DNA from: a virus
Lineage: Duplodnaviria > Caudoviricetes
Direction: 5' to 3' (one strand)
Length of the DNA: 64,000 bases
Virus record (IMG/VR): IMGVR_UViG_3300028048_000042
The stretch's first letter is position 1. Each line of letters begins with the position of its first letter. The notes beneath the pieces are model-generated. The model was not told where the DNA came from, made no database searches, and worked only from the letters and a program-made list of their open reading frames with translations. The translations under genes and the position numbers were made by a program. Shown piece after piece: positions 225 to 61,874 of the stretch.

Positions 225-590
225 ATGAAAAGATTGATAAAAAGGACAGCAAGGTATGTACCGAAACAAGAATTTGAAGTAAAAAGTTTTATATCAAAGG
301 ATGGTTTGCAATACACATATAATGTACGTATTGTAGGTAATGAACCTAGATACTCCATAGTTATCAATAGTGCTTATGATAGTTATTCTTTGTATGATGG
401 TGATGATTATGAAGGGTCGTTTAAAGTATTTTGTGAATTATCAATTGCATTGAAAGGCGTATCTTTTGCTGAAGATTTATATAGCACGAAAAAAGAAATT
501 GAAGAAAAAATCAAAAAGATGACAGTACAGCCAAGGGATAGCTATTTGAAATATAAACACTTATTCCTTGGAGATTCGGATATGGTGTAA
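225..590 (+). CDS. Hypothetical protein with MKRLIKRTA N-terminal tag (candidate inner-head protein)
   Basis: RBS AAGGAG at 212-217; start moved to ATG 225. Confidence 0.75.
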   Translation: MKRLIKRTARYVPKQEFEVKSFISKDGLQYTYNVRIVGNEPRYSIVINSAYDSYSLYDGDDYEGSFKVFCELSIALKGVSFAEDLYSTKKEIEEKIKKMTVQPRDSYLKYKHLFLGDSDMV

Positions 591-592
591 TT

Positions 593-793
593 ATGAAACG
601 ATTAGTAGCAGAAGAAATGACTCATAGAGATATAGTCATGCAATTTGGATTATCCAATCATACGTATAATGATTTAATTATTAATAATGGAGAAATTGAA
701 GATAGTAAATATACTCCTGAATATAAATTTGAAGAACCTTGTGATAATCCTGAATGGCGATTTAAAGACCAAAACAATTCACAAAAATTTTAA
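593..793 (+). CDS. Small hypothetical protein with MKRLVA tag
   Basis: Directly follows previous stop; shared N-terminal motif. Confidence 0.7.
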   Translation: MKRLVAEEMTHRDIVMQFGLSNHTYNDLIINNGEIEDSKYTPEYKFEEPCDNPEWRFKDQNNSQKF

Positions 794-878
794 AAAATAA
801 TATAATATTTTAAGGTTCTTTTATTTTTGTTATAGTGATATAATAAAAAATCTGTTATAAAAATTTAAATAGAAAAAG

Positions 879-2399
879 ATGGTGAATATTTTGAAAATTA
901 CTAAACAGAGTAATGGTCTGCCTGAATGGTTGTCCACGTTGGCAGACGTATTTAAGGAAAAGAAAAACGCCAAAGCAGAAATGCAGGTTGGCAACCTTCC
1001 AACAGTAGATTGGAACGATAACACATTTTATGTAGATGTTGTTGATGGTGAAGTAATTCTTTATAATCAGTATGGTAATGAAGTTCTTAAACTTATGGCT
1101 AATGAACTTGGTAAGACTGATGATGAAGATGTAGTAAGTGCTGTTGATAAATATTTGAATGAGCACTATGTAACTGCAAGCGTCAACTCTGAGGGTTCAA
1201 CAACTTTTGAAAAGAAAGTTATTGCTGAAGAGGGAGATATTGACGTTGACTTGGATGACAACGATACGAATCCTAATGATGAAATGGATATGGTCTTTGA
1301 GCAGGAACTTGAAAAAGTTGCTAGTATGGAAGACGGTATGCCTGAGGATGAAGGTTCAGGTGATTCAGAAGGTACTGATGGTGCTGAACAGCAGACAGCT
1401 ACAGCTTCTGTAGAAGAAGTTGAAGAAAACGTTGACGAAGAGCCTGTTGTAGAGGAAACTCCTGTAACAGAACCTGTGGCTTCTGATGAAGAACCTGCAA
1501 TTGCAACTGACCCTGTTGTTACTGAACAGCCTGAAGAAAAAGCAGGCGAACCTTCTCAGGGCGTTGAAGATGAAGCAGGAGAAATCTCTGAAGGTATTGA
1601 TGACGTAGCTACAAAAGGTGATGCAACACCTACTGATGATTTTGGTTTTGATGATGTAGATTCTGAACCTGTTGAAGAAGGTTGCGAATGCGAAGAATGT
1701 GCTTGTGAGGGTTGTGAAGAAGAATCTAAAGACAAAGAAGGTTTTGTAAGCCTTGCTTCTTATAATCGTCTTGTTGCACGTTTGAATGCTCTTGAAAAAA
1801 CAGTTAAGGCTTTTCAGGCAGAACAGAGAGCATATACAGACCCAGGTGATGTTTATGACCTCAATTGTCAGGAAGAAGAAGTAAAGAACTTTCAGAAAAG
1901 TGCTGCTGAAACACAGGCAGTAGTTGATGCAGAGCATGAATTGGATATGTCTAAGATGTCTGACCGTGCAAAGCTCAATGAAAATTTTGTAAATGAGGTT
2001 ATTAATAACAGTGCAGAACAGACAGAAGCAGTAAATGAAGTTGTTGCTCCTGCCGAAGTTCCTTCTGAAACTAATGAAGAAGTAACTGAAGAACCTGTTG
2101 CTACTGAAGAAGCAGTTGAGGGTGAAGTTGTAGAAGAACCAACAGAAGAAACATCTGAGGAAGCTACAGAAGAACCTGCAACTGATGAAGAAATTCCTGT
2201 TGAGGAAAATGCAACAGAAGCTGATTATGTTGCCCTTGATGAAGAACAGTTGAATAAATTTGCTAAAAAAATTTGTCCTTTCTGCGGTAAAGAACATTTG
2301 ACACCTGTTGATGAAGTAGGTGGTGTTATTGGTGTTCGTTGTGATGATTGCGGTAAGGAATTTGCCGTTAGTGATGACGAAGTATATACAAAAGAATAA
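879..2399 (+). CDS. Highly acidic low-complexity protein with C-terminal zinc ribbon; candidate prohead core/scaffold protein
   Basis: E/D/P/T-rich 506 aa, CPFC...CDDC at C-terminus, internal KVIA/KVAS motifs, high-expression codon usage, paralogous segments with 53975..54721. Confidence 0.6.
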   Translation: MVNILKITKQSNGLPEWLSTLADVFKEKKNAKAEMQVGNLPTVDWNDNTFYVDVVDGEVILYNQYGNEVLKLMANELGKTDDEDVVSAVDKYLNEHYVTASVNSEGSTTFEKKVIAEEGDIDVDLDDNDTNPNDEMDMVFEQELEKVASMEDGMPEDEGSGDSEGTDGAEQQTATASVEEVEENVDEEPVVEETPVTEPVASDEEPAIATDPVVTEQPEEKAGEPSQGVEDEAGEISEGIDDVATKGDATPTDDFGFDDVDSEPVEEGCECEECACEGCEEESKDKEGFVSLASYNRLVARLNALEKTVKAFQAEQRAYTDPGDVYDLNCQEEEVKNFQKSAAETQAVVDAEHELDMSKMSDRAKLNENFVNEVINNSAEQTEAVNEVVAPAEVPSETNEEVTEEPVATEEAVEGEVVEEPTEETSEEATEEPATDEEIPVEENATEADYVALDEEQLNKFAKKICPFCGKEHLTPVDEVGGVIGVRCDDCGKEFAVSDDEVYTKE

Positions 2400-2420
2400 T
2401 TAAAGGCAGGTAAAAATAAA

Positions 2421-5922: not shown

Positions 5923-7680
5923 ATGAAAAGAAACCATAGAACTGCTGTTGCTAATAGAACAAATAATTTGGCTATGAATAGCATTATTGATAAAAGTGAT
6001 TTGCCTAAGAGTATTCAGCGACAAATGAAGCGCAATTCAAAAATGGCAAAAGCTTCAGGTGTAGATATTAGAATGTCAAACCCTGTATTTTATCAGCCAC
6101 TATTTCAAAGCACAAATATGTTGTTGCCTAGAGATAGGCGTGAAAGAAATGAGTGGTGTCGCCACTTTTATCGAACAGAACCTATCATTGCAACGGCATT
6201 AGATTTACATACAGAATTTCCAATATCTGATTTGAATAATGTGTGCTCGGATAGCTATATCAGGAAGTTTTTTGATTATATGGCATTTGAAAAGCTAGAT
6301 TTAGTCAATCTTTTGTTGGATATTGGTCTTGAATATTGGAAAATTGGTGATGTTTTCCCATTTGGTCAGTTTAATGAATCTGAAGGTATGTGGGAAAAGT
6401 TCACGTTGTTAAATCCTGATTTTGTCAATATTAATTCTTCTATTTTTGCAGGTCAGGAACAGATTGAAATGATTCCTGATGATACCATGACAAGTATTAT
6501 TGCAAATGGCCCTTCAGGTTCATTAGGTGATTTGTATAGACAATTCCCTGAAGATATTATTATGCAGGTTAGACAAGGTAAAAATATTGCGTTGGATAAT
6601 CGTTTAGTATCTCATATTACCCATAAAGCTAGTTCCTATGAAACTTGGGGAACACCATTAATGATGCGTTGTTTTAAAACGTTGATTTATAAAGATAAAT
6701 TGAGACAAGCACAGGATGCTATTGCAAATAGACATATTATGCCTTTGCGTGTAGCAAAAATTGGTACACCTGGTGAGCCTATGCCATCACAGGCTGATAT
6801 TGATGATTTTCGCGATACATTGCTTGAAGGTGAGGGCGACCCAAACTATTTCCTTGTTTATCATTATGGTTTGTCTTTTGAGTATGTTGGTTCAACAGGA
6901 AAAATCCTTCCTTTGAATACAGAATTTGATTTTATTCAGCAAGAACTTATGACAGGTCTTGGTATTACACAGGCAATGCTTAATGGTGATGGTTCGGGTT
7001 ATACACAAGCACAGGTTGGTGCAGAAGCGTTAGCTAGACGTTATGCGGCTTATCGTTTGAGGTTGGAACGTTGGATTAGAGAACATGTTTATAAACCTGT
7101 TGCAGAAACACAGGGTTTTTATAAACCGAAAAATGGTTCAGGTGCTATTGCTACAAAATATATGACAGCTAGTGAAAGAAAACGTGCTGTAGCAAATAAA
7201 GAGATGGATTTGATTGTTCCGAAACTTTTGTGGCAGAAGCAAGATTTGACTTCAAATCAGACAGCAATGACATTTATTCAGAATTTACGTGATAAGGGAT
7301 TAATCTCCATGACTACAGTATTACCGTTGTTGTCGCTTGACCCTGAAACAGAAAAACGAAATCTTGAAGCAGAACGTGGTACTGTATTTGATGAAAATGC
7401 ACCTAAAACAGGGCCTTTGCCAAAAGAAGGTCAATTGCTTAATGATGAATTTGAGACAGGTTATACTATGCGTGAAATTTCACCTGAAAGTCAATTTGAA
7501 GAGGTAGATTACACATTTGATGAAAGTGGAAATGCTGTTTCTACAGGTAATAATCCTGCTGACTTTGGGTTAGAAAGACACGATTCAATTGGTCAGAATT
7601 CAGCAAAACAAGCTTTAGATGTAAATAAATTTTTTAATAAGAAAGAACCTGTGGATAAGATTTTAATTAAAAAGAAATGA
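5923..7680 (+). CDS. Portal protein
   Basis: 585 aa; W(C)RHFYxxEPIIATALDLHTEFP, EYWKIGDVF, LLNPDFV and WGTPLMMR...YKDKLRQAQ patterns of large-phage portals; position upstream of protease and capsid. Confidence 0.85.
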   Translation: MKRNHRTAVANRTNNLAMNSIIDKSDLPKSIQRQMKRNSKMAKASGVDIRMSNPVFYQPLFQSTNMLLPRDRRERNEWCRHFYRTEPIIATALDLHTEFPISDLNNVCSDSYIRKFFDYMAFEKLDLVNLLLDIGLEYWKIGDVFPFGQFNESEGMWEKFTLLNPDFVNINSSIFAGQEQIEMIPDDTMTSIIANGPSGSLGDLYRQFPEDIIMQVRQGKNIALDNRLVSHITHKASSYETWGTPLMMRCFKTLIYKDKLRQAQDAIANRHIMPLRVAKIGTPGEPMPSQADIDDFRDTLLEGEGDPNYFLVYHYGLSFEYVGSTGKILPLNTEFDFIQQELMTGLGITQAMLNGDGSGYTQAQVGAEALARRYAAYRLRLERWIREHVYKPVAETQGFYKPKNGSGAIATKYMTASERKRAVANKEMDLIVPKLLWQKQDLTSNQTAMTFIQNLRDKGLISMTTVLPLLSLDPETEKRNLEAERGTVFDENAPKTGPLPKEGQLLNDEFETGYTMREISPESQFEEVDYTFDESGNAVSTGNNPADFGLERHDSIGQNSAKQALDVNKFFNKKEPVDKILIKKK

Positions 7681-9100: not shown

Positions 9101-9403
9101 ATGTTAAAAAGACTCTGTAATCATGTTTCTCCATTTACACATAATGTAGTTACTGATATTGTAAAGAAAAGTTCTAGCAATGAGATTGCTAGTAGTTATG
9201 CTCATGTGTTAGCAAAACAAATTTTGGCAGACTTGCCATTAATTCCGACAGGACATTTGGTTTATAATTTGACTCAGCAGATTCAGTTTGGTTTGCTTGA
9301 TTCTGTTTGTCCTTTGGAAGATGTAAAAAATCATTGGCAGGAATGCTTAGATGTTGCAGGTCAGTATTTAAAAGATATGGGTATTTGGTGTGAAGCGAAA
9401 TGA
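9101..9403 (+). CDS. Hypothetical head-region protein (MLKRL start)
   Basis: RBS AAGGAG; ATGA overlap with protease gene. Confidence 0.7.
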   Translation: MLKRLCNHVSPFTHNVVTDIVKKSSSNEIASSYAHVLAKQILADLPLIPTGHLVYNLTQQIQFGLLDSVCPLEDVKNHWQECLDVAGQYLKDMGIWCEAK

Positions 9404-10323
9404 TTATTATTAACAATACAGAAGGTAGGATTGAAGATTACGTTGAAAGTAATGATGGTGTCGTTTTATTTGGTAATAAAAAAGTTGACATTAACGTATT
9501 GAAAGATAGTCCTACGTTAAATAAAGTTGGGAAGAAAATTGCTACAGCGAAGTTGGTTAAGTTAGTCCCTAAAGAAAAAGATTTTTTGTATATTCGAAAT
9601 CGTGCAGTTTCAGCAGGTAATGTTATTGAAAAAGAAGATGGCACATGTGATTTAGTTCCGATTGAGGAATTTCACAATAATTTTGGCAAATATGCTTTTA
9701 TTTGCCGTGGTGCAAATGATAACGGTGATTTCTTTTCTCATGAAGAATTAGAGAAAAAATATAAGACCTTTATTGGTAAGGCTGTTTTCTATGAGCATGA
9801 TGATGATAACATTAATAAAGCTCGTGGTATTATTCTTGATTCCATTTATAATACAAATGGTTATTACGTTGAATTATTTGAAGCAATTGACGCAAAAGCT
9901 TATCCACAGTTAGCAACTGCTGTAAAAAATGGTCATTTGACAGATACTTCTATGGGATGCTATATTGGAAAAGCAATTTGTTCCATTTGTGGCAATGTTT
10001 CCAAAGAAGTAAATCCTGAAGAGGGAATGGATGACCGTTGCGAACACATTAAACGTTATAAAGGTTTAACTTATAATGGTTTGCCTGTTTTTGAAGATAA
10101 TCGTGATGTTGTTTTCTTTGAAGATAGTATCGTTGGTACAGGTGCGGATTCGCAAGCAAAGATTATGGAACGTGTTGCAAGCAAGAAAAATCAATCAGGT
10201 ATTATTCTTCCTCAGTATTATCAGAAGAAAAACGATGTTTTCGCAAAAGAACAGAATCAGCGTACATTCCAAGGTCGTGTGCACAATCTTGAAAATAAAT
10301 TCAGTGAATTGCCTTGGTCATAA
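9400..10323 (+). CDS. Prohead (capsid maturation) protease
   Basis: NxNGDFF..EL...Y.TFIGK.VF.EH....ARGIILD, TSMGC...CSICG...CEHI, F.E.S.V..GAD..A motifs of herpes/HK97-fold (S78-like) prohead proteases of large phages; between portal and capsid. Confidence 0.8.
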   Translation: MIIINNTEGRIEDYVESNDGVVLFGNKKVDINVLKDSPTLNKVGKKIATAKLVKLVPKEKDFLYIRNRAVSAGNVIEKEDGTCDLVPIEEFHNNFGKYAFICRGANDNGDFFSHEELEKKYKTFIGKAVFYEHDDDNINKARGIILDSIYNTNGYYVELFEAIDAKAYPQLATAVKNGHLTDTSMGCYIGKAICSICGNVSKEVNPEEGMDDRCEHIKRYKGLTYNGLPVFEDNRDVVFFEDSIVGTGADSQAKIMERVASKKNQSGIILPQYYQKKNDVFAKEQNQRTFQGRVHNLENKFSELPWS

Positions 10324-10352
10324 AAAAAGGAGCAGATTAATCTGCTCCTTTT
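10324..10352. terminator. Bidirectional intrinsic terminator
   Basis: AAAAAAGGAGCAGA-ttaa-TCTGCTCCTTTTT between convergent genes. Confidence 0.85.
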
Positions 10353-10669
10353 TCATATATAAGTTCTAATTGTGTTTGAGATGTGCGTAAAAAGATTCTA
10401 TTTGCACCTTGTTTTTTAAATGCATTAATAATGTCATCTTTCATCATATTGTTAAGTATACGTAAATTTTCAACAATGAAGTCGTTATTAATCTGATGAA
10501 AAAAACAAAAATGATATTGGAAGGGGTTGTAATAAAATTTTCTTAGTGCAAGAGTATGTGTTTTTCCTTTGTATATTTTCCCTTTTGAAAATACACCTGC
10601 ACAATCTCTTGTATTTAAATCAAGAATATCAATATTGAATTCTTTTTGTATTGTTGTCATTATAATCAC
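10337..10669 (-). CDS. Stand-alone RD...TH...FxH domain protein (paralogue of domains in 10754 and 19403 genes)
   Basis: Own sigma-A promoter and RBS (GAGGAG on - strand); motif similarity to two + strand genes. Confidence 0.7.
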   Translation of the reverse strand: MIIMTTIQKEFNIDILDLNTRDCAGVFSKGKIYKGKTHTLALRKFYYNPFQYHFCFFHQINNDFIVENLRILNNMMKDDIINAFKKQGANRIFLRTSQTQLELIYEKGAD

Positions 10670-10685
10670 TCCTCACTCTATTTAG

Positions 10686-10753: not shown

Positions 10754-11821
10754 ATGAATAAGAGATTGATTGCGGATAGAGCAGATATTCTTAAAAATGG
10801 ATATGAAGATTTAGTTGATGTAATTAATGATTCTTCAGAAGATGCAGTTAAAGAAGATTTTTTCAGTGTTATTAAAAAGAATTTCCCTGCAAAAACTTTT
10901 GTAGAAGCTACTTTAAAGCAGGGTGCGGCAACGCAGAATGAAATCAATAAAGAAACACTGATGAATAAGTTACCACAGTATTTGAAAGATACAGCGCATT
11001 TATATTATCAGAAATTCTACAAAAAACGTTTAATTGATGACGAAATCGCTTGTGAACCAAAAGATAAAATCTTTAAGCAAGCTGTTGAAAAGTTTTCTTC
11101 GGAAATTGTATTGAACGAAGAGTTGGGTAAAATGGTAGAAGATGCCATTAATGACGAAAGTGTTCAAGAACGTTATTTTAAACATGAAGAAAAGCCAAAA
11201 GAAAAAGAAAAATCAAAGGACAAAAAGCAAAACAATGAAGAGTTATCTTATGAGGAAGAAATTGAACAAACTGTCAAAAAACGAGGGGTTATACCATTTG
11301 GTGTTTTAAAAGATTTAGATGAACCTGTTGGAACAACAGGCATTCCAATTATGCCTGTTGATGTTGGGCGTAGAGATTATCCTTTTATTGTTATGGACAA
11401 TTCTATTTTCGTTAAAGGAACGTCAAAAGATAGCCATTCAACTGCATTGCATGAATGGGCAGAAAAACATAAAAATGACAAAACGGAATTAGGAAAAAAA
11501 CTTAAAGAAATTTATGATAAAAATGATGATGATTGGTATCGTGAGAATGCAATAGCTGCTCTTGCAAAAGCAGGAGTGACTAAATTAGCTTTCGGTCACG
11601 TTCGTGAAGATATGGCTTTTGTTGATACATGTGATGGATGTACAGCCGATGATGTAAAAAGTGTTGTAAAAAGTGGCACAGGAGTTTCCAAGGTTTATGA
11701 TGTAACAAAACATATGTCTTACGGTGCTTGGAGTGGAGTTCGTGTAGCTAGATTAATTCCTAATTACAATAAAGAAATGCATAATTCGGCTATTGAAGAA
11801 ATGAAAAAATTTAAGCATTAA
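10754..11821 (+). CDS. MNKRLIA-tagged protein with C-terminal RD...SH...FGH domain
   Basis: RBS AGGCGGT; tag; domain shared with 19403..20569. Confidence 0.75.
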   Translation: MNKRLIADRADILKNGYEDLVDVINDSSEDAVKEDFFSVIKKNFPAKTFVEATLKQGAATQNEINKETLMNKLPQYLKDTAHLYYQKFYKKRLIDDEIACEPKDKIFKQAVEKFSSEIVLNEELGKMVEDAINDESVQERYFKHEEKPKEKEKSKDKKQNNEELSYEEEIEQTVKKRGVIPFGVLKDLDEPVGTTGIPIMPVDVGRRDYPFIVMDNSIFVKGTSKDSHSTALHEWAEKHKNDKTELGKKLKEIYDKNDDDWYRENAIAALAKAGVTKLAFGHVREDMAFVDTCDGCTADDVKSVVKSGTGVSKVYDVTKHMSYGAWSGVRVARLIPNYNKEMHNSAIEEMKKFKH

Positions 11822-11915: not shown

Positions 11916-12404
11916 ATGAAACGATTAATCGCAGATAATAGCAAATCAATTGAACAGATGATTAAGAGTACGGCTGTTGAAGGTCGTGAGATTTTGAAAT
12001 CTTTGGAACAATTTAAATTTGAATTGGAACAATGTGTAAAGATTTCGGTAAATGAAGATATTAATAGTAAAATACATCAACATTATGATATGGTAGATAA
12101 ATTAATGTCAGGTTTATATACTATTTGTTATGATATGGAAAACGTTGATTTAGTGCCTGTTTATGATAATGACCAAATTGATATGAGTAATCAAGATTCT
12201 CCTGATAGTGATAATGCAGGTTATAAATTGGGTGAGGAATATCCACTACCTGAAGATGAAAACGCTGACGAAGAAACTAATAATGAATCTTCAGAAAATG
12301 AATCTAGTGACGAAGAATCATCAGATACAGAGACAGATGAAAATGATTCTGAAAATGAAAGTGAGGAAAAAGGAGAAGAAAGTTCCGACACTGAAGAAGA
12401 GTAA
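11916..12404 (+). CDS. MKRLIA-tagged helical protein with acidic tail (candidate core/internal protein)
   Basis: RBS AAGGCGGTGA; tag; E/S/D-rich C-terminus. Confidence 0.75.
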   Translation: MKRLIADNSKSIEQMIKSTAVEGREILKSLEQFKFELEQCVKISVNEDINSKIHQHYDMVDKLMSGLYTICYDMENVDLVPVYDNDQIDMSNQDSPDSDNAGYKLGEEYPLPEDENADEETNNESSENESSDEESSDTETDENDSENESEEKGEESSDTEEE

Positions 12405-12429: not shown

Positions 12430-13164
12430 ATGAAATTGAAGGTTGTAAAACCTAAACCAAAATATTATAAGATTTCATATGCTATGTTGAGTTATCATTT
12501 GGAAAAAGAAACGCCACAGGAAGAAGAACAAGATGTTGTGGAGAAACCTGTGGTAAAAAAAGCGACCACACAATTTGCTACAAAATATGAAAAATTAGTG
12601 GATATGGCAATTACTAAAGGCTTGGTGGAGGAAGATGAACGAGAAACAAAAGTCTTAGAATTGCAATGTTTATCCGAAGAAGATTTTGATGAATATGCAA
12701 AAGAGGTTGAAGATGCAGTTTCTGCGAAAGTTGGTAGTATTACTGACAAAGAACCTGAGTTTGAAGAAGGTATGACAGAAGCAGAAAAAACTTTAGCGAA
12801 AATTCGTGCTACAGGTTCAGCACCAATTATGACAGATTTTTCAGGTGCTAGTGAAGATATGTTATTGGGTGATGAATCATCAGGCTCACGTTCGTTGGCA
12901 GATATTAAGCAAGATAGATTGATGGCGCAAGCTATGGAATCAATGACGATTAAAAACGATACTCAATTACTTCAAGATGCAATGGGAGATTTGGCTGACA
13001 AATTACATAAAAATAAAGCAACGGCAAATGCTAAATCTCCAATGTCAGGTTTAAAAGGATTGACTAAACCAATTGTTGTTCCACAACAACAGCAATTTGG
13101 GTATAGAGGTAATTCTTGGGCAGATAAATTAGCAGGCTTGAATTGGTCTTCAGGAAGTAGGTAA
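12430..13164 (+). CDS. Putative scaffolding protein
   Basis: Acidic, helical, between protease and capsid genes; C-terminal KLAGLNWS similar to protease C-terminal KFSELPWS. Confidence 0.55.
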   Translation: MKLKVVKPKPKYYKISYAMLSYHLEKETPQEEEQDVVEKPVVKKATTQFATKYEKLVDMAITKGLVEEDERETKVLELQCLSEEDFDEYAKEVEDAVSAKVGSITDKEPEFEEGMTEAEKTLAKIRATGSAPIMTDFSGASEDMLLGDESSGSRSLADIKQDRLMAQAMESMTIKNDTQLLQDAMGDLADKLHKNKATANAKSPMSGLKGLTKPIVVPQQQQFGYRGNSWADKLAGLNWSSGSR

Positions 13165-15052: not shown

Positions 15053-15898
15053 ATGGCTATGACTCAAGAAGAACAGGAATTCCTTATCTCCGAAGCATTG
15101 GAGACAAGTGAAGGTCGTGCGGCATTGGCTTCCTCAATGGCTAACCCAATCCGTACATCATTGGATTATCAGGGTATCGCTCGTAAATTGCTCGTAGTAG
15201 ATGCTCTCCCACAGGGTGCTCTCCCTGTTTATGACCGTGATGTTGATGCGAAAGCATTCATCATCTCTAAGCGTGGTCAAGCTCCTGACCAGCTCATTGA
15301 AGGCGAACGTGTTCAGGTTCCAACCTTTGAGATTGTTTCTCACCCACTCGTTCGTTTCTCTCAGATTAAGGAGCGTCGTTTCAACATCATTGACCGTGCA
15401 CAGCAGCGTGCTAAGTCTGATATTATGGCTGTTGAGGATGAAACTGTATTCTCCCTTATCGACAGTGCAGCTTCTGCTGTTAATACTGTAACGGTTTCTA
15501 AAGGTGCTCTTACTCGTGATGCTCTTACAACTGCTTTTAAAGAAGTTGAAAAGCATGACCTCCCTGTTACAAAGATTGTTATGAACGCTCAGGCTTTTGC
15601 TGACATCCGTAAATGGGGTCAGAATGAGTTTGACCCTGTTACTCAGCACGAAGTTCTTCAGACTGGTAACTTCGGTCATCTTTGGACAGCAGAAATTCTT
15701 ATTTCTAAGAAAGTTCCTGCAAATACAGTCTATGTTATGTCCGACCCTGAGTTCGTAGGCGTTATGCCTGTTCGTCAGGATATTCAGGTAATTCCTGCTG
15801 ACGAGCCTGAAAAACTTCGTGTAGGTTGGGTTGTATACGAGGAAATCGGTATGTCTGTACTCAATGCACAGGCAGTTGCTAAGATTGAAATTCAGTAA
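15053..15898 (+). CDS. Major capsid protein (HK97 fold)
   Basis: RBS AGGAGGT; LASSMANPIRTSLDYQGIARKLLVVDALPQGALPVYD, PTFEI, G.LWTAEI, GWVVYEEIG patterns; strongest codon bias in the window. Confidence 0.9.
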   Translation: MAMTQEEQEFLISEALETSEGRAALASSMANPIRTSLDYQGIARKLLVVDALPQGALPVYDRDVDAKAFIISKRGQAPDQLIEGERVQVPTFEIVSHPLVRFSQIKERRFNIIDRAQQRAKSDIMAVEDETVFSLIDSAASAVNTVTVSKGALTRDALTTAFKEVEKHDLPVTKIVMNAQAFADIRKWGQNEFDPVTQHEVLQTGNFGHLWTAEILISKKVPANTVYVMSDPEFVGVMPVRQDIQVIPADEPEKLRVGWVVYEEIGMSVLNAQAVAKIEIQ

Positions 15899-19229: not shown

Positions 19230-19415
19230 ATGGAAACTGCAATAGCTTTACTTTTAGTTTTTGCTGTTTTTGTAACAGCAGTAAACTTTTTGGTTGAAGT
19301 GGTTATGCCGATTGCAATTTTTGTTTTTCTCTTTTATGCAATTGGTGGAGTTGATTATATTCGAGAATTGATTAAATATTGCAAAGCAAGGTGGGGTTAT
19401 AAATGGAAAGATTAA
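19230..19415 (+). CDS. Small membrane protein
   Basis: Long hydrophobic stretch IALLLVFAVFVTAVNFLVEVVMPIAIFVFLFYAIGG; start moved to ATG 19230. Confidence 0.6.
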   Translation: METAIALLLVFAVFVTAVNFLVEVVMPIAIFVFLFYAIGGVDYIRELIKYCKARWGYKWKD

Positions 19416-20569
19416 AAAAAGTATTGGCAGAGGAAGAAACAGAAAACGAAGAGCAAGAAATTGTTTGTGAAGATTTGAATGATATTAAACAGTATGTTGA
19501 AGATATTGATGGCTACGCATGTTCACCATATGTATTTACAGAATCAGGAATGGAAGAATACCTTGAATCTTTATTTCCTATTGATGTATCTGAAATATAT
19601 GATGATGGTGCGGAAACTTTTATTGAAAAATTAGAAGAATATACTTTTGAAGATTATTGTAATGATATTGATACCGAATCATTGAAAAGTGAATATGAAG
19701 ATAATTGGGACAGTTATGTTGCTGATGATGATTTGAATTATGATGTGTATTCGTTTGATTGGGACAATATCACAAGTGATTTGTGGGAACTTGCTTCAGA
19801 AAATGACGAGTTGGAAGATTTGTATGATTCTGTTGTTGAAAATTATATAGCAAAAGTTCCAAACACCGATTCTTCTGAACGTGTTGATGATGACGAGGAT
19901 AATTATGAGGTAAAATCTCTTGATGAAGTTGCTGAATCTGATGATAAAGTTGGTGATGTTTTCTCTTTGGAAGATTCAATTGATTATGATACAAGAGATA
20001 ATGCGTTCATTTATATTGATGGAGAGATTGTTGAAAGTAATAACGGAGAAACACATTCGCAATTATTACAGAGATATTTAGAAGAGAATGATAAAAATGT
20101 TCCTCAAGATTTGCGTGACCGTGACCAATATCGCGCTTCACGACCAAGTGTTAAGCAGACAAAAAAAATGACAAATGCAGATGATGTAGCATTTGGTCAT
20201 ATTGTTGATGATTGTGCTTTTATTGAGGTTATTTCAGGCGGTGCTACGATTGATGATGTCGCAAATGCTTGTAAAAAAGACTATTCAAAAGTATATCAAT
20301 ATGACGGAGATAATATCAAACGTGTAGCTAGTAGTAAGAAAATGGAAGATGTAATTCGTGGATTTGGTTTTCGTCCATTTGTTGTAGAAAATTTAGGTAC
20401 AGCATTAATGGGTAAGTACAGCATGATTACTATGGAAAATGGCTATCCACGTATTGATGTGGCTTTAAATGCTGACGTTGAAAATATTGACCAAGAAGAA
20501 TTTGATGATGAATTTGCAAAAGCTCTTATGCTTTGTAAGACATTGGGTAAATTGAAGTTGTATAAATGA
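19403..20569 (+). CDS. Acidic multi-module protein with MERLKKVLA tag, RD...TH...FGH domain and internal KRVAS site
   Basis: Motifs read from translation. Confidence 0.75.
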   Translation: MERLKKVLAEEETENEEQEIVCEDLNDIKQYVEDIDGYACSPYVFTESGMEEYLESLFPIDVSEIYDDGAETFIEKLEEYTFEDYCNDIDTESLKSEYEDNWDSYVADDDLNYDVYSFDWDNITSDLWELASENDELEDLYDSVVENYIAKVPNTDSSERVDDDEDNYEVKSLDEVAESDDKVGDVFSLEDSIDYDTRDNAFIYIDGEIVESNNGETHSQLLQRYLEENDKNVPQDLRDRDQYRASRPSVKQTKKMTNADDVAFGHIVDDCAFIEVISGGATIDDVANACKKDYSKVYQYDGDNIKRVASSKKMEDVIRGFGFRPFVVENLGTALMGKYSMITMENGYPRIDVALNADVENIDQEEFDDEFAKALMLCKTLGKLKLYK

Positions 20570-20648: not shown

Positions 20649-21821
20649 ATGAAAAGACTTGCTAGTACAGAATTGACAGTTGTACACAGTCGTGAAGATA
20701 TTCCATCAACGGAAATGAAAAGTCTTTTTCTTGCAGGCCCTACTCCAAGAAAAAAGCATAATCTTGAATGGCGTTCGGAAGCAATTAAAATTCTTAAAGA
20801 ACTAGGCTATAATGGTATTGTATATACACCAACTGAACGTAAAGGTGAATTTGACCGTAATGTTCTGAAAGAGCAGTGTGCATGGGAATACAAGACAATG
20901 ATGGCTTGTGATGCTATTGTTTTTTGGATTCCTCGACAAAAACGACAAGATTTTGAAATGATTGCATTAACTACTAATGTGGAATTTGGTCGTTTCTTTG
21001 AGTCAAATAAAATGTTCTGTGGTGCTCCTAATGACGCAAAATCAATCGAATATTTGAAAATTATTTCTGAAAATAGATATGAATGGACAAATACTTTGCG
21101 AGATACACTTAAACGAGCTGTAGATTATCTTGGTGAAGGTGTATATCGTGAGGGAGCAGAGTGTTTAGTTCCTAAACATATTTTTGAATCTGCTCAATTT
21201 CAAAATTGGTATAAATCTCATAAGCAGAATGGAAATCAATTAACTGATTTTAAGACTTTGTTTGAATTCATTGCTCCTTATTCAAAGAAAATGTTTATGA
21301 CGATTTTTAAACCTGATGTGTTCATTGAAAAAGAAAATCGCACAAAAAATAATGAATTTGTAGTTGCAAGAACAGATGTATCATATATCTGTGCTTACCA
21401 TAAGACCAAAAAGGAAACTAAAATTCTTTTATGTGAAGAATTTAGAAGTCCTGTTGTAAATGATGATTCAATGGTTTATGAACTTGTGGGCGGTAGTAGT
21501 GATAATCCAAATGACGATGAATTGCAAGTTGCCGCAAATGAGTTTGAAGAAGAAACAGGCGTGAAATTAAAAAAGAGCAGATTCAAGAAGGTTGATATTA
21601 AACAGTCTGCAGCAACGCTTTGCTCTCATAGGATTACACTTTACTCTGTTGAATTAACGGATGAAGAAATTAAACATTTTGAGGAAGATAAAGATATTCA
21701 CGGAGTGACGGAAGCAACAGAACAGATTCATCTTCATGTCATGACTTTGGAAGATGCATTAAAGAAAGTAGATTGGACAAACGCAGGTATGATTTTTGCC
21801 GCAATGAAAGGAAAAGAATGA
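20649..21821 (+). CDS. Nucleoside 2-deoxyribosyltransferase-like (TIR-like fold) + Nudix hydrolase fusion with MKRLA tag
   Basis: N-term SLFLAGPT...WR...QCAWEY...CDAIVFW...TTNVEFG; C-term Nudix box ELVGGSSD...AANEFEEETG preceded by EEFRSPV (ADP-ribose pyrophosphatase-like). Confidence 0.85.
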   Translation: MKRLASTELTVVHSREDIPSTEMKSLFLAGPTPRKKHNLEWRSEAIKILKELGYNGIVYTPTERKGEFDRNVLKEQCAWEYKTMMACDAIVFWIPRQKRQDFEMIALTTNVEFGRFFESNKMFCGAPNDAKSIEYLKIISENRYEWTNTLRDTLKRAVDYLGEGVYREGAECLVPKHIFESAQFQNWYKSHKQNGNQLTDFKTLFEFIAPYSKKMFMTIFKPDVFIEKENRTKNNEFVVARTDVSYICAYHKTKKETKILLCEEFRSPVVNDDSMVYELVGGSSDNPNDDELQVAANEFEEETGVKLKKSRFKKVDIKQSAATLCSHRITLYSVELTDEEIKHFEEDKDIHGVTEATEQIHLHVMTLEDALKKVDWTNAGMIFAAMKGKE

Positions 21822-27099: not shown

Positions 27100-28254
27100 A
27101 TGAGAAATATTATTTTGGCTCGTTTGCGCAGAGCTTTAGCAAAAATGGATATTACTACAAAATGTCCTGCCACTCCATTTAAGGTTGGCGACCCTATTGG
27201 TGATACCGAAGTTGTTAACGCAAGTGCTTTGAAATCGGCAGGAGCACTTAGTAAAAATCTTATTGATTTTGAGGATAAGGCAGATAACAGCAAACTTTAT
27301 ACAAAACAATATATTGATACAACAGGAGAAATTACCGCAGTTGAATTGGCAAAAGTTCTTGGTGATAAAGGCCCTTGGATTGGTCAAGAACAAGATAAAT
27401 TGTATAAAAAGCTGATTGATTACATTGGTGGCAATGAATTTACTGCAAAAGTAAAGGGTAAAGAATATGAATTTAAAACTTCTACAGACCAAAAAATTTA
27501 TACAAAAAGTACAAATGCACATGACGAAAACGCATTCTTTATCAAAGTAGTTCGTGCTGATGATGAATCATTGAAATACAATTGTTTCTTTAGTTTCACA
27601 GCAAAAATTTATTATCTTGGTGTAGCAGATGCCAAAACAAAAACTTGGACAAATGAAGTTTATCCTATGGTTGATTTGGAAGGTGTTAACTTCAATGGCT
27701 ATAAAGTTGTAGGTAAAAATCAGGTTGTAAAAAAAGAACAAATGGATTCTGCTAATACAGTTGGAGAACTTGCAAAACATTTTACTGAACGAGATGCAGA
27801 AGAACTTTCCACAAAGAATTATAGCAAACTTTGTCAGAAACTAAAGAAGGGTAATCCTGTAGCAAATATTCGTAACTATTTTAAAGATTTTCTTGGATAT
27901 AAGAGTGGTAAAGATATTCCTGATGAAGCATTTGTGAAAATGATGGAAGATGCAGAACCTGCTAAGAAAGCGGTGCGTCAGGCAATGGTAGAATATGCTA
28001 AATCTGTAAGCAATCGTGCAAGAGAGAATGCAGAAGCACCACTCACAGAAGAGGATGAAAAGGCTCTTGGTGTTCTTGGGGCATTCGCAAGGTCTAATAC
28101 AGATGTTGGCGTTAATGAAGATTTTAAAGTTGGTACAACCTCACCATCAGGTAATGATTTGATGAAGCTGTATGCTAGTGGAAGTGCTGTTGGCGATGTG
28201 ATTCCATTCTCAGTAGATGATATTGTATCAATTCTTAAAACAGCAACAAAATAA
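27100..28254 (+). CDS. Hypothetical protein with basic-hydrophobic N-terminal tag (RLRRALA); candidate virion cargo
   Basis: Single-gene unit with TAT-N8-TAGA motif, RBS AGAGGA and terminator. Confidence 0.75.
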   Translation: MRNIILARLRRALAKMDITTKCPATPFKVGDPIGDTEVVNASALKSAGALSKNLIDFEDKADNSKLYTKQYIDTTGEITAVELAKVLGDKGPWIGQEQDKLYKKLIDYIGGNEFTAKVKGKEYEFKTSTDQKIYTKSTNAHDENAFFIKVVRADDESLKYNCFFSFTAKIYYLGVADAKTKTWTNEVYPMVDLEGVNFNGYKVVGKNQVVKKEQMDSANTVGELAKHFTERDAEELSTKNYSKLCQKLKKGNPVANIRNYFKDFLGYKSGKDIPDEAFVKMMEDAEPAKKAVRQAMVEYAKSVSNRARENAEAPLTEEDEKALGVLGAFARSNTDVGVNEDFKVGTTSPSGNDLMKLYASGSAVGDVIPFSVDDIVSILKTATK

Positions 28255-53974: not shown

Positions 53975-54721
53975 ATGAATAAAATGAGTTGGTTAAAAGA
54001 ATTCGCTGAAAGCCGTAAAGCAAGCAAGCAGGCTCAGAAAAAGGCTGTAGCTTCTAAGAAAGCCATTGAGCTTAATGAGGAAGAATTTGAAGATGGCATG
54101 ATGATGATTGTCAATAACGCTAAGTTGTCTACTGCCGCTGTTGGTAGTAAGATTCGTTATAAAGGTAATATTTGGTCTTTGGTTAAGGTTGATTATTCTG
54201 ATGCAAAAGGTCACGGCTTTGTATTGAAACGTGTTGCTGCTATTGATACTAAACCTGTAACTGCTCCTGCTGAACGTGCTTGCACAGACCCAGGTAATGT
54301 TTATGATTATGATGTTCGCGCAACCGAGCAGGCTAAGTTTGAGGGTGAAGCTAACGAAACTGCACAGGAAATTGCTCGTGAGGATGCTGTTGACCATTCC
54401 ACAACTCCTGCAGCTCGTACAGTTGAGTCTCCAATGGCAGGTGCTTCTGAGACTGTTGAGGCTGTTGAAACTACTGAACCTGCTGAACCTGTTGTTGAGG
54501 ATGAAGTTGCTCCTGTTGAGGATGAAGCTCCTGCTGAAGAAGAGGTTGCAACAGAGGATGATGAATTTAATTTTGATGATGTAGATGCTGAACCTGTTGA
54601 GACAGAGGAAGAAGAAGCTCCTGCTGAAGATGAAAAAGACGATGATGAAAAAGAGGAAGATAAGAAAGCAACTGCTTCCATTCATAAAAATCGCATCATT
54701 GCCGCTATGTTAAAGAAGTAA
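53975..54721 (+). CDS. Acidic low-complexity protein, paralogue of 879..2399; candidate prohead core protein
   Basis: TDPG.VYD module, FDDVD.EPVE motif, KRVAA and KNRIIAA sites. Confidence 0.75.
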   Translation: MNKMSWLKEFAESRKASKQAQKKAVASKKAIELNEEEFEDGMMMIVNNAKLSTAAVGSKIRYKGNIWSLVKVDYSDAKGHGFVLKRVAAIDTKPVTAPAERACTDPGNVYDYDVRATEQAKFEGEANETAQEIAREDAVDHSTTPAARTVESPMAGASETVEAVETTEPAEPVVEDEVAPVEDEAPAEEEVATEDDEFNFDDVDAEPVETEEEEAPAEDEKDDDEKEEDKKATASIHKNRIIAAMLKK

Positions 54722-54747: not shown

Positions 54748-55227
54748 ATGGATGCAAAAATGAAGAAAGTTATCGCTAGTGAAACTAATGTTTATAGCAA
54801 ACGTTTCGCTGCTAAGTTAGATGCTCGTATGGAGCGTATTCTTGAAGATGCTGAGAATCTTGTAAAATCTTATTTCCCTGCAAAACAGGTATCTGCTTCT
54901 CTTACTAAGTTGCAGGCTGCACTTGTAGCAGAAGGTATCAATTGTGTTTTTGATAAGACTGTTACAAAAGAAGCTATTGCAAGCACTGCTGATAGCGATA
55001 TTAGCGAGAAAGAATGCAATGAAGCCGTTCGTTATATTGCGAATGCTGTAGTTGATGAAACAGAAGATACTCTTGAAGCATGTGATAAAGCTATTAAGGC
55101 TCTTGCTAAAAAGCATTATCCAAAGAATCGTATCTCCACTGCTAAGAAAATGCGTAAATCTGTTGCTGAGATTATGAATAAGCAGGGATTGCATTTTGAT
55201 TTTGACGGTTCTGAAAAAAAAAATTAA
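54748..55227 (+). CDS. Helical protein with MKKVIAS tag, ending in an A10 run
   Basis: RBS AAGGAG; ends ...GSEKKN*. Confidence 0.8.
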   Translation: MDAKMKKVIASETNVYSKRFAAKLDARMERILEDAENLVKSYFPAKQVSASLTKLQAALVAEGINCVFDKTVTKEAIASTADSDISEKECNEAVRYIANAVVDETEDTLEACDKAIKALAKKHYPKNRISTAKKMRKSVAEIMNKQGLHFDFDGSEKKN

Positions 55228-56637: not shown

Positions 56638-57033
56638 GTGAAGAAAAGATTGATTAAAGCAGATACTACAAGCGATGCAAAAATGAGATGGTTGGCAGAA
56701 GAGTTAAAACAAGAAGACGTTGATAAGGTTTTAGATACAGCAAGAGAAATGGGATGTCAGTGGGCGCATGATATTTATGAGTTCACTGAAGATAATCTCA
56801 ATGAAGTTCTGAAAACTCTGTGCTCGGATTTTAAAGATGCTTTTGCAAAGGGTTGGGCTTCAGAAGTAAATTATAGCGATAAATATTTTGCAGTAGAAAC
56901 AGACGAAAACATTTCAAGCTTTAATGATTTATCTAGTGCGATTGATTATCTTGATACTGCGGCAAAATTACTTGAACAGCCTGAAATGGCAATTAATATT
57001 TCACAACATATTGATGAAGCTGTTAAAGAGTAA
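56638..57033 (+). CDS. MKKRLIKA-tagged hypothetical protein
   Basis: RBS AAGGAAGGT then GTG 56638. Confidence 0.7.
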   Translation: MKKRLIKADTTSDAKMRWLAEELKQEDVDKVLDTAREMGCQWAHDIYEFTEDNLNEVLKTLCSDFKDAFAKGWASEVNYSDKYFAVETDENISSFNDLSSAIDYLDTAAKLLEQPEMAINISQHIDEAVKE

Positions 57034-57044: not shown

Positions 57045-57281
57045 ATGAAACGTTTGGTCGCAATCACAAATGGTGATTTAAAATATATGGATTTAGATGT
57101 TGATGTAACTAAAGCTGAAGACATGATGTTGCTAAAAACTCTTGATTCGACAAATGTTAAAACAGGCACTTGCCCACAATGTAATTATTCTCCTTTGGAA
57201 AAAAAAGATGGGTATAAGATTTGTAAAAATTGTGGTGCTGTATATAAGATTTTTGATAATGAAGTTTATTTGGTAAAATAA
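57045..57281 (+). CDS. MKRLVA-tagged zinc-ribbon protein
   Basis: CPQC...CKNC. Confidence 0.75.
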   Translation: MKRLVAITNGDLKYMDLDVDVTKAEDMMLLKTLDSTNVKTGTCPQCNYSPLEKKDGYKICKNCGAVYKIFDNEVYLVK

Positions 57282-57297: not shown

Positions 57298-58110
57298 TTG
57301 AAAAGATTGATTAAACGTGTGGCTGATAGATATAAAACTTATATGGATTGGCTGAATTCTGCTGATGAAAACGAACTTGGCGGTTATTATTCAGACCGTT
57401 ATAAAGATGAATTTGGTTGTCGCCCTAGCGGTAAAGAAGCGAAATTTGATTCTGCGGATGATTTAAAAAATGCTATTTTGAATCTTGACCAAGATTTTAT
57501 CGAAGAGTGTAAAAAAAGAAATGAACTGCTTGAACAATTGAACACCCTTTATACTGCTGTACATGGAGAAAGCTTGCCTTGGGATGAAAAAAAATGTGAT
57601 TATTGTTCTTTTGATGAAATTTATAAAGAAATGGAAAAGCTTGATAAAGAAGTCGCGGAAGATGAAAAAAACAGATATGCAAGCAAAGCTGTTGGCAAAC
57701 GTTTGAAAAAAGTAGCAAAAAGTCTTGAAGAACTTACAGATGAAGAGTATGAAGATTTGAAAAAAAATCCTCCTGTGTCTGCGGAAGAATTTAAATCTGT
57801 AATGCAGAAAAATGTAGAAGAAAATATTAGTCATCTTCAGGAAGAGTTTGAGAAGAAAATTAAAGAAGCAATTGCAAACGTTGTTGATAGTAATTGTGAT
57901 AAAATTTATGATGATGCATATTTTGATGCAATTGAACAGTTTGCTCCAAAAACAGATTTTTCTGAACAGGATTTGAATGAAATTATGCAAGGTACTCAGG
58001 TTTACAAAGATTGGAAAAATTGGACACCTGAGAAAATTATGGCTATGAAATCTACAATTGAAAGTGCAACGAAGGTTGCTTTGGAAGATTATTTTAGCGA
58101 ACAGAAATAA
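57298..58110 (+). CDS. MKRLIKRVA-tagged two-module protein with internal KRLKKVA site
   Basis: RBS AAAGGTG then TTG 57298. Confidence 0.75.
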   Translation: MKRLIKRVADRYKTYMDWLNSADENELGGYYSDRYKDEFGCRPSGKEAKFDSADDLKNAILNLDQDFIEECKKRNELLEQLNTLYTAVHGESLPWDEKKCDYCSFDEIYKEMEKLDKEVAEDEKNRYASKAVGKRLKKVAKSLEELTDEEYEDLKKNPPVSAEEFKSVMQKNVEENISHLQEEFEKKIKEAIANVVDSNCDKIYDDAYFDAIEQFAPKTDFSEQDLNEIMQGTQVYKDWKNWTPEKIMAMKSTIESATKVALEDYFSEQK

Positions 58111-59805: not shown

Positions 59806-59836
59806 AAGAGTCTGCCTATATTGGCAGACCTTTTTT
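59805..59836 (+). terminator. Intrinsic terminator
   Basis: AAAAGAGTCTGCC-tatatt-GGCAGACCTTTTT. Confidence 0.75.
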
Positions 59837-59861
59837 GTATTATTTTTTTGAGGTGATTTTG

Positions 59862-60692
59862 GTGAACATAGAGTTAAAAAAATCTTTAATGCCACCAACA
59901 CATATTGACATTTCTTACCCAAGAGATAATAGTCATATTGTTGTTACATGGAATGAAGTAAAAAAACCTAAAGGCGTTTCTAAAAACGATAATTCTGCAA
60001 TAAAATATAATGTGTATAAGGGTTTAACACAGAATGGTATTTTTTATAAGATAAATGGAAAACCTTTAAATTCAAATAGATTTGAAGATTATGATTTATC
60101 AAGAAATCCAAATGTTCAAAATTGGTATAAGGTATCTACAGTATATGAAAATGAGGGAGAATTGATTGAAGGTGCATTGTCACAACCACGTTGCTTCCAA
60201 GTTCGAAATACCGATAGATGGTTTATGAAAATGAATGAGCGAAATTTGTGGATTCTAAAAAATACAGGTATGTTGTTTGACTTATATACGAGAAAATATG
60301 ATGGGGAACGTTGTCCTCGTTGTTTTGATGAAATTCGTGGTCGTGCAGGAACTCCTGATTGTGCTATTTGCTATGGTACAGGATATGTGGGCGGTTATGA
60401 CCCTGCATATCAATTGTACGTGCGTTTAAAACCCTTCCAAACATCTATGGATGTAACTCCTAACCAAATGATGATTCAAAATGCTCCTACAGGTGCATGG
60501 ACGATTTCAGATACAAAGATTATGAATAGAGATATTTTGATTTCACCAACAGGTACAATGTATCAAGTAATTAATTCTATGATTAATCAAGCAGGAGGTT
60601 ATTTATTCCATCAAGAACTAAATTTGAAGCCTTTTGACCCTAATGACCCAATTTATATGATGAAAAGGACAACTTTATATCCGAGATTATGA
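59862..60692 (+). CDS. Putative neck/head-closure protein with N-terminal fibronectin-III-like domain and Zn finger
   Basis: V.W...YNVY...F.D...WYKV (Fn3); CPRC...CAICYGTGYVGGY; RDILI...MYQV; start estimated after RBS GAGGTGA. Confidence 0.65.
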   Translation: MNIELKKSLMPPTHIDISYPRDNSHIVVTWNEVKKPKGVSKNDNSAIKYNVYKGLTQNGIFYKINGKPLNSNRFEDYDLSRNPNVQNWYKVSTVYENEGELIEGALSQPRCFQVRNTDRWFMKMNERNLWILKNTGMLFDLYTRKYDGERCPRCFDEIRGRAGTPDCAICYGTGYVGGYDPAYQLYVRLKPFQTSMDVTPNQMMIQNAPTGAWTISDTKIMNRDILISPTGTMYQVINSMINQAGGYLFHQELNLKPFDPNDPIYMMKRTTLYPRL

Positions 60693-60746
60693 TAATAATG
60701 AATAAAAAATTTATATTTTTTATATAAAATGAAAGGAAGTTGACAC

Positions 60747-61874
60747 ATGAAATATTTAATTAAACGTGTTGCTGAAGAAATTGAAAAGTCTGAATCTGAA
60801 TTACAAGACGCTGTTGATAAAGAACTTCATGATTATGTAGAAAATCCGAATTCTACAAATAGCGAAGAATTAAAAGAAGCTGTACAGGAATATGATTCTG
60901 CTGATACTTCTTTAAATCAAATTCCTGCGTTGTTTAAAAAATTATTGGAGCAGGGTAAGTTCTGTGGAGATAATTTTGATAATGGCGGTGGTAAATATGA
61001 TAAAGCTACTGAATGGTTGAAAGAAAATGGCTATGGTAACTTTGTTTATGATAAATACAATCGAAGTGAAGAACATAACAAGGCGGTAGAAGATAAAAAC
61101 GACTATAAAACATCTACTATCTCCAACGTTTTGAATGTTATTAAAGAAGATGATGTTATTCTTGACGTTCTTCGTAAATCAAAACAAAAAGCTCCTATTA
61201 CATATATCTCTGTGTATGAAGGAGATAAAAGCGGTAAAGGTCGTATGACAAAGGATAAAAATGGCAAGAAATGTTGGCAAAGAAATCAGCGTTTGAAAGA
61301 TTATGTTCCTTTGGTAGAACAGGTCTTTGACCACGTAGAATGTAAAAATGGCATTATTACTGCTTATGATGATGAAGATTTGAAAAAGGAAGGAAAAGCA
61401 AGTATGAAAAGATTGGCTAGTATGTATGGTGAAACACGTACAGAAGAAGATTTAAATTATTATTTCCCTAAGAAATTTGAAGATGTTGGGATTGAAGGTG
61501 TAAAGTGCGAATATGATGGTGGCGTGAGAGTTGATTTTTCAGGTAAGCCAATGACAGATAAATTGTTAAAAGCACTTACTGCAAAAGATGGCGACCCATA
61601 TGAAGAAATTTTGAGCACTCATTTTGCAGGCAGTAAAGAAGAATATCAGAATTTCAAACAGCAGTTTATTGATGGAACTACTTTTGGTTTTCATGGTGAT
61701 TTTGTTGGTGATGTTGAAGTTGCTATCAATTACAATACAAATTTCGATTGGATTGAAGACTTGAAAGATGAAATTGCTGATGGTTTAAGTTATCTGATTT
61801 CCGATATGCTTGAAGATATGAATAGTGAATTTGAAAAAGATTTCTACGAAGAACAGAAATCAGAAGAAGAATAA
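60747..61874 (+). CDS. MKYLIKRVA-tagged polyprotein: SAM-dependent methyltransferase-like domain plus second module after internal MKRLAS
   Basis: FDNGGGKYD (motif I), YDKYNR, SNVLNVI, YISVYEGD, WQRN. Confidence 0.7.
   Translation: MKYLIKRVAEEIEKSESELQDAVDKELHDYVENPNSTNSEELKEAVQEYDSADTSLNQIPALFKKLLEQGKFCGDNFDNGGGKYDKATEWLKENGYGNFVYDKYNRSEEHNKAVEDKNDYKTSTISNVLNVIKEDDVILDVLRKSKQKAPITYISVYEGDKSGKGRMTKDKNGKKCWQRNQRLKDYVPLVEQVFDHVECKNGIITAYDDEDLKKEGKASMKRLASMYGETRTEEDLNYYFPKKFEDVGIEGVKCEYDGGVRVDFSGKPMTDKLLKALTAKDGDPYEEILSTHFAGSKEEYQNFKQQFIDGTTFGFHGDFVGDVEVAINYNTNFDWIEDLKDEIADGLSYLISDMLEDMNSEFEKDFYEEQKSEEE

Follow-up and report, generated by a model that had tools for sequence, protein, structure and literature searches.

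We analysed a 64,000-nucleotide stretch of viral DNA (IMG/VR record IMGVR_UViG_3300028048_000042; hereafter the window), in which a preliminary description had pointed to a short peptide beginning M-K-R-L at the start of about ten proteins (the tag) and had proposed that it directs them into the phage head and is removed there by the prohead protease. The window has a GC content of 32%, carries almost every gene on the plus strand, and comes from a ~318-kb phage of the phage G type (Donellivirus), of which it represents the head/neck module; gene 20649 (genes are named by window position) lies on a 318,451-base contig. The genes for the portal (5923), protease (9400), decoration protein (14524) and capsid protein (15053) follow the order of Bacillus phage G, and the tail sheath begins at the right edge of the window. 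The capsid protein shares 77% of its residues with G gp27 and less than 40% with any other in a cultured-phage collection. Because of this shared gene order and capsid identity, we chose the complete phage G genome and uncultured related contigs as the test bed.

Tagged genes of the window

All twelve starts named in the preliminary description translate as quoted, with GTG as the start codon at 56638 and TTG at 57298. The list nevertheless required changes: it had missed the shortened tag at 9101, and its member at 27100 is a weaker case. The revised set is as follows.

225..251, plus strand: tag MKRLIKRTA of a 121-residue protein (gene 225-590); orthologs in two relatives likewise begin KRL
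593..610, plus strand: tag MKRLVA of a 66-residue protein (gene 593-793); orthologs are tagged
9101..9115, plus strand: shortened tag (KRL, no Ala) of a 100-residue protein just 5' of the protease gene; the ortholog is the fully tagged G gp17
10754..10774, plus strand: tag MNKRLIA of a 355-residue protein, a paralog of 19403
11916..11933, plus strand: tag MKRLIA of a 162-residue acidic head-module protein, ortholog of G gp20
19403..19429, plus strand: tag MERLKKVLA of a 388-residue acidic protein, read from the translated start
20649..20666, plus strand: tag MKRLAS in front of a nucleoside-deoxyribosyltransferase-like/NUDIX enzyme, ortholog of G gp334
27100..27141, plus strand: extended form of the tag, with RL at residues 8-9 and Ala at residues 12 and 14, of a 384-residue orphan; relatives have similar long forms
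54748..54777, plus strand: K-V-I-Ala site without RL, at the start of a gene that encodes the C-terminal half, here split off, of a gp159-like core protein, from alignment to gp159
56638..56661, plus strand: tag KKRLIKA (GTG start) of a 131-residue protein, read from the translated start
57045..57062, plus strand: tag MKRLVA of a 78-residue zinc-ribbon protein, ortholog of G gp172
57298..57324, plus strand: tag KRLIKRVA (TTG start) of a 270-residue acidic protein, read from the translated start
60747..60773, plus strand: variant tag MKYLIKRVA of a 375-residue acidic protein, read from the translated start

The entry at 54748 had been described as a tagged passenger, a reading that we abandon. 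There is no RL, the protein is similar to G gp159 over the C-terminal half of the latter (38% identity over 93 residues, E 9e-5), and its K-V-I-Ala is probably a cleavage site. The G gp159 counterpart is divided here between two adjoining genes, 53975 and 54748 (window 53975-55227). We also considered 58132 (S-R-L-L at residues 10-13) and rejected it, as it encodes a conserved neck-region protein whose G ortholog shows a different pattern.

Every tagged start in the window has a plausible ribosome-binding site (RBS) or abuts the upstream gene. The bodies behind the tags are mostly unrelated, as first described, with the exception of 10754 and 19403, which are paralogs with a common domain of ~120 residues (conserved R-D, two His and D-D). 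Searches of Pfam, PHROG and Atlas left most tagged bodies without a name. A probable stand-alone paralog of the 10754/19403 domain carries neither an N-terminal nor a C-terminal copy of the motif and is preceded by an 11/12 sigma-A-type promoter; this gene probably serves as a natural negative control.

10337..10669, minus strand: probable untagged stand-alone paralog of the 10754/19403 domain (hidden Markov model match, E 6.5e-5, weak)

This small inverted gene and its near-consensus sigma-A promoter together occupy 10337-10714 (minus strand) within the head module.

The tag is a peptide-level feature enriched in the phage G lineage

Searching N-termini against shuffled controls, as the preliminary description had suggested, revealed a clear excess of the M[KR]R[LI] start. 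It opens 6 of 70 window genes, while column-shuffled N-termini yield 0.56 on average (maximum 4 in 2000 shuffles) and random internal positions 0.04. In phage G, 21 of 699 genes begin this way versus 3.1 expected (column shuffle, maximum 10), and a wider motif finds 37 G starts, a few of which are false positives. Five related contigs have between 7 and 26 places apiece where an RBS precedes MKRL. The control phage AR9 showed no M[KR]R[LI] start among 61 genes; the RBS+MKRL pattern, searched genome-wide in DNA, was absent from c-st and present at 2-3 places each in AR9, K and SPO1. Of the three places in SPO1, one is inside a gene, one belongs to a lipoprotein-type signal peptide and one lacks a small residue. 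What is specific to the lineage is therefore the frequency and continuation of the MKRL start, not the bare start.

Aligning 82 distinct tagged starts gave the consensus M-K-R-L-(I/K/V)-(K/R/A)-(K)-(S/A). Ala occurs within seven residues after RL in 48 of the 82 tags versus 144 of 722 background sequences (20%; p 9e-13), and Ala, Ser or Gly in 78 of 82 versus 440 of 722 (61%; p 6e-12), so Ala is not the fixed code residue that had been proposed. The constant part is K-R-L, with Ala, Ser or Gly following 0-5 residues on. All 20 orthologs of 11916 have the R and the L and at least 90% of them the Ala, with insertions of 0-3 residues in between. By its alignment, the tag thus appears to consist of two anchors, K-R-L and a small residue, joined by an elastic spacer; this description fits better than the original K/R-x-hydrophobic-Ala. 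The tagged bodies are strongly acidic (p 6e-13 in G, p 0.014 in the window).

Tag Arg codons come from both AGR and CGN and Leu codons from both TTR and CTN, in genome-wide proportions, and the 40 bases upstream of tagged genes are no more alike (similarity 0.33) than those of other genes (0.33). This codon spread and the unlike upstream DNA place the conservation at the level of the peptide rather than of the DNA, in agreement with the preliminary description. The tag is thus a real feature that is conserved as a peptide.

The tag behaves as an add-on module and is not restricted to N-termini

Distant homologs of the 20649 enzyme mostly start straight at M-x-V/I-V-Y. G-like homologs have 8-12 additional residues beginning KRL, often retain the old Met, and in some cases carry Gly instead of Ala. 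The tag is thus an extra module that a borrowed enzyme has gained ahead of its original Met. The 57045 family shows the tag in 23 of 35 representatives (32-59% identity), and the linkers differ greatly in length. The window ortholog of the tagged G gp345, 52764 (52764-53225), has no tag, so individual genes acquire or lose it. These orthologs bear out the earlier suggestion of a modular set.

The motif had been described from N-termini and occurs elsewhere too. Both gp141 and gp233 of G carry it at the C-terminus. Two 19403 paralogs of one relative lack an N-terminal tag and finish in R-L-A-K plus a few residues, and in another relative a 19403 paralog is tagged at both ends; the C-terminal R-L-A-K of this family could instead belong to the domain. 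Three internal copies lie in the window:

20315..20332, plus strand: IKRVAS, immediately 3' of the shared domain of 19403
57697..57717, plus strand: KRLKKVA, mid-gene in 57298
61404..61421, plus strand: MKRLAS, residue 220 of 60747, preceded by a purine-rich stretch

The copy at 61404 may mark a fusion joint or an internal start; when the C-terminal half of 60747 was looked for as a protein on its own, only one short, near-identical contig turned up.

Tagged genes in phage G concentrate in the head module

By the preliminary description's own criterion, a motif equally common on replication genes would have spoken against the idea, and the outcome in phage G favors it. In gene classes hand-picked from the G annotation, from which the tagged gp334 (NUDIX), gp284 (ParB-like) and gp346 (ferritin-like) were left out, the tag occurs on none of 89 genes for core replication, nucleotide supply and expression and none of 41 genes for neck, tail, fibre and decoration, versus 7 of 25 head-module genes (p 1.6e-4). 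Other tagged G genes are scattered singletons. Among the tagged G proteins are gp13, 17, 20, 38, 53, 123, 141, 172, 233, 251, 334, 336, 345-347, 351, 508, 610 and 675. In the window, no tag was found in the radical-SAM/glycosyltransferase cluster (33158-52124) or on neck genes.

A few carriers (11916/gp20, 9101/gp17 and 57045/gp172) are conserved components of the head module, so the earlier view that all members are packaged passengers applies to only part of the list. Most of the others are probably swappable passengers, exemplified by the NUDIX enzyme here and by ADP-ribosyltransferase-like, ferritin-like and ParB-like proteins in G. Passengers that could be named in G include a PARP/ART-like protein (below the Pfam cut-off) with its paralogs and the ferritin-like gp346. 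The former make up a family with an H-G/H-T-S signature (gp53, 123, 141, 233, 251, 336, 531 and 610; L001:35181-36314 and paralogs), all eight members of which are tagged, two of them at the C-terminus too. The tagged gp346 (L021:5160-5879) parallels encapsulin cargo and has been reported from particle proteomics (PMC12484599).

A herpesvirus-type prohead protease and its candidate sites

The proteins and sites that bear on processing are:

5923..7680, plus strand: portal protein; its basic N-terminus ends T-A-V-Ala
9400..10323, plus strand: prohead protease, ortholog of G gp19, with the T4 gp21/herpesvirus protease fold
9535..9549, plus strand: predicted self-cleavage site before the protease core, with the family consensus K-T-Ala50|K; Ala in 91/93 homologs
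10168..10179, plus strand: predicted self-cleavage site on the C-terminal side of the protease core, E-K/R-V-Ala260|S; Ala in 93/93 homologs
12430..13164, plus strand: probable scaffold, a role assigned from position (that of G gp21) and composition; acidic, with K/R-x-Ala sites
15053..15898, plus strand: major capsid protein, 77% identical to G gp27
15113..15130, plus strand: G-R-x-x-L-Ala26, equivalent of the deduced G gp27 cut (after Ala27); 11 relatives all have the same G, R, L and Ala
891..2399, plus strand: acidic core-like protein in the position of G gp11, with internal K/R-x-Ala sites
53975..54721, plus strand: acidic core-like protein, N-terminal half of G gp159, with the highest K/R-x-Ala density in the window

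The 9400 protein matches the head maturation protease PHROG (E 1.4e-15). A search of 48,161 chains with its predicted structure (predicted local distance difference test, pLDDT, 77) returned as the top three the proteases of T4 (gp21; Z 7.7, root-mean-square deviation (rmsd) 3.3, 119 residues aligned), varicella-zoster virus (Z 7.6, rmsd 4.9, 116 aligned) and human cytomegalovirus (Z 5.7, rmsd 3.5, 115 aligned); the Kaposi's sarcoma-associated herpesvirus protease was likewise among the matches. Foldseek alone gave nothing significant for the same model, with T4 gp21 as its best match (E 0.19). His133 and Ser184 are invariant in 93 protease homologs and are putatively catalytic. The protease core extends over about residues 54-259 and is flanked by the Ala50 and Ala260 sites.

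Mature G gp27 comprises 255 of 282 residues, with a mass of 28.2 kDa, according to a study with N-terminal sequencing data (Hua et al., PMC5646251 Table 1). Removal of 27 residues leaves 28.17 kDa, and the published mature mass and length therefore place the maturation cut after R-V-A-L-Ala27, a position deduced from length on the assumption that the C-terminus is untrimmed. Literature and arithmetic together thus lead to the deduction that the P1 residue in the G capsid protein is Ala. The highest densities of K/R-x-Ala sites are found in 53975/gp159, gp7, the scaffold, the protease and the tagged proteins. The proposed cut after Ala by the 9400 protease hence receives indirect support, from the mature length of gp27 and from the K/R-x-Ala sites that flank the protease core.

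More distant phages with the G-type capsid family also have K/R-x-Ala sites in their head proteins. An uncultured phage of 485 kb, whose capsid protein is distantly related, has a leader of its own, ~28 residues long and ending K-E-Ala, on two unrelated head-region genes (L036:14893-15948 and 23171-23575, minus strand). Comparison of these sequences suggests that the cleavage rule is old and the address parts lineage-specific.

A proposed capsid address joined to a protease site

We favor as reasonably likely the reading that the tag is an address joined to a protease site, similar in kind to the T4 capsid-targeting sequence (CTS) but of different chemistry and belonging to the phage G lineage. 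The basic anchor K-R-L-(I/V/K)-K/R would dock a mostly acidic protein onto an acidic surface of the forming prohead, with the inner face of the shell, the scaffold or the core as candidate docking sites; the acidic propeptide of the capsid protein and the density below the five-fold vertices are further candidate receptors. The small residue 0-5 positions on (Ala, less often Ser or Gly) would be P1 for the 9400 protease, which would remove the tag at maturation and likewise process the capsid protein, the scaffold, core proteins and itself; the body would then stay within the head. That the same 9400-type enzyme cuts the tags seems quite likely, and that tagged proteins are located in the head seems likely. 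Ejection of some of them into the host is a possibility that we hold in some doubt.

Several points count against this interpretation. About 40% of tags have no Ala, and the capsid-protein site has no RL and may be conserved in part for structural reasons. The gp27 cut is a deduction from length, not one read from the sequencing data, and cutting of the tags themselves is something we infer. The Z-scores of the 9400 fold matches are middling, though the three best chains come from one clan. A bare MKRL start occurs in ~1% of SPO1 genes and is therefore not specific alone. If gp334, gp284 and gp346 are counted, the core class of G becomes 3/92 tagged. Upstream of tagged G genes, word enrichment revealed A/T-rich words only and no shared late promoter. 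The particle dataset with gp346 also contains 55% of nucleic-acid-metabolism proteins, so this detection counts little. Finally, bubblegrams of G show no inner body of the phiKZ type.

Some of these observations would also suit K-R-L as a docking label for another structure or partner (the DNA factory, the membrane, a chaperone or packaged DNA), with the small residue serving only as helix cap or as linker. RL varies less than Ala, C-terminal copies exist, most tagged G genes lie outside structural operons, and the tag is basic and amphipathic. Such a label accounts poorly for the head-module enrichment and the absence from replication and tail genes, or for the resemblance of the second half of the tag to sites in the capsid protein, protease and core proteins, and we consider it improbable. 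Still less probable is that the tag marks its carriers for degradation or processing by a host protease (e.g., ClpXP), with a Met-basic-hydrophobic N-degron limiting their lifetime. The tag resembles the ClpX N-motif 2 pattern, and phage G encodes ClpP and ClpX; however, phage ClpP is absent from five tagged relatives, of which two are 98% complete or more, although ClpXP of the host might still act on the carriers. Internal and C-terminal copies do not fit a strictly N-terminal signal, and neither the conservation of a small residue at variable distance nor the head-module enrichment is in keeping with a degron.

Two further explanations concern the gene start itself. An A-rich start that aids late translation, or a 5' cassette spread by recombination, would make the tag a nucleotide-level feature, and low-GC genomes do often have Met-Lys starts, while SPO1 has two MKRL starts. 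Arg and Leu codons drawn from both families at genome-wide frequency, upstream DNA that is not alike, internal and C-terminal copies, and retention of the tag in compositionally divergent relatives largely refute this idea, to which we give very little credence. The basic residues after Met and an Ala at a possible -1 position are reminiscent of the n-region of a Sec signal peptide. The best 9-residue hydropathy of the tags has a median of only 0.7 (above 2.0 in 2 of 82), and the bodies are acidic and of cytoplasmic type; with the h-region missing, this explanation is refuted and its probability close to nil.

Comparison with known systems

In T4, cleavage occurs after Glu in L/I-x-E, at the end of a leader fixed at 10 residues. 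The T4 CTS is found as a short leader on diverse, otherwise unrelated internal proteins (PMC3012670). Like the CTS of IPI-III, which gp21 removes, the G-lineage tag is a short conserved N-terminal leader on unrelated proteins, is accompanied by a protease of the gp21 fold, and ends in a manner that resembles sites in shell and core proteins. It differs in being basic, 5-14 residues long and terminated by Ala, Ser or Gly, with an elastic spacer and with internal and C-terminal copies too. The capsid protein of the G type belongs to the HK97 family (gp27-like), not the gp23 family, carriers number ~35 in G versus a handful in T4, and the bodies are mostly acidic whereas T4 internal proteins are basic. 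With a leader end other than L/I-x-Glu and a capsid outside the gp23 family, the tag falls outside the T4 sequence family. The T4 CTS is proven, and the G-lineage tag is known here from sequence.

The prohead protease of SPN3US processes many internal head proteins and itself at A-X-E (PMC10052503). The phiKZ/SPN3US enzymes (gp175/gp245) thus resemble the system proposed here in cutting one short motif in many head proteins and in the protease itself; unlike it, they have Glu at P1 and mostly remove long propeptides (111-254 residues), no common short leader has been described, and phiKZ has the inner body that is not seen in G. Herpesvirus assemblin cuts after Ala, typically at Ala-Ser, including a release site directly after the protease domain. 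It shares the fold, and its release site (of its R and M sites) recalls K/R-V-Ala260|Ser, but its substrates are the scaffold and itself, and we know of no dispersed family of tagged passengers. Encapsulin cargo-loading peptides are short N- or C-terminal sequences that send unrelated cargo, including ferritin-like proteins, to an HK97-fold shell. Compared by description, they share with the tag a terminal peptide on unrelated cargo (G gp346 being a tagged ferritin-like protein); they are non-viral, involve no protease and have a different consensus. A literature search, in which most subscription papers were out of reach, found no paper describing the K-R-L motif.

The principle is known from T4, and what is new is the chemistry and the independence of which end is tagged. 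The tag would assign a probable site of action to ~5% of the genes in G, which is the only megaphage in culture; most of these genes are hypothetical. For a branch of prohead proteases so far uncharacterised, it would also supply a rule of cleavage, with Ala or another small residue at P1, and it predicts pre-loaded effectors in Firmicute jumbo phages together with a short capsid-loading tag. As phage G is cultured, the idea can be tested there. A bolder and, in our estimate, unlikely extension is open cargo loading, in which a K-R-L leader of 5-9 residues at either end would suffice for entry into the T=52 head, Ala-specific release and injection of ~30 swappable effectors. If true, these would form a kit of ADP-ribosyltransferase-like, NUDIX, ferritin-like and acidic DNA-mimic-like proteins, and the tag would be portable, carrying foreign proteins into the largest known phage capsid.

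Other features of the window

Two recurrent Trp-containing elements are candidate shell-binding helices. A Trp-containing amphipathic helix lies at the N-terminus of large core-like proteins (891, at 891-940; 53975, at 53975-54010; G gp7, gp11 and gp159), and a K-L/F-x-x-L-x-W-S terminus ends both the protease (10280-10323) and the scaffold (13110-13164), with Trp306 present in 92 of 93 protease homologs.

The untagged cluster at 33158-52124, an insertion that separates head from neck genes, comprises ~18 genes of radical-SAM-like, glycosyltransferase and related types, and sugar-pathway genes lie on either side of the capsid gene (13168, aminotransferase; 15997, UDP-glucose dehydrogenase). 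These genes may serve modification of the virion or of DNA. Beside the radical-SAM gene 21818, 22896-23420 encodes a 174-residue protein with a long Cys/Gln-rich repeat (C-x-x-C-Q units), which resembles a modified-peptide precursor or a metal-binding repeat.

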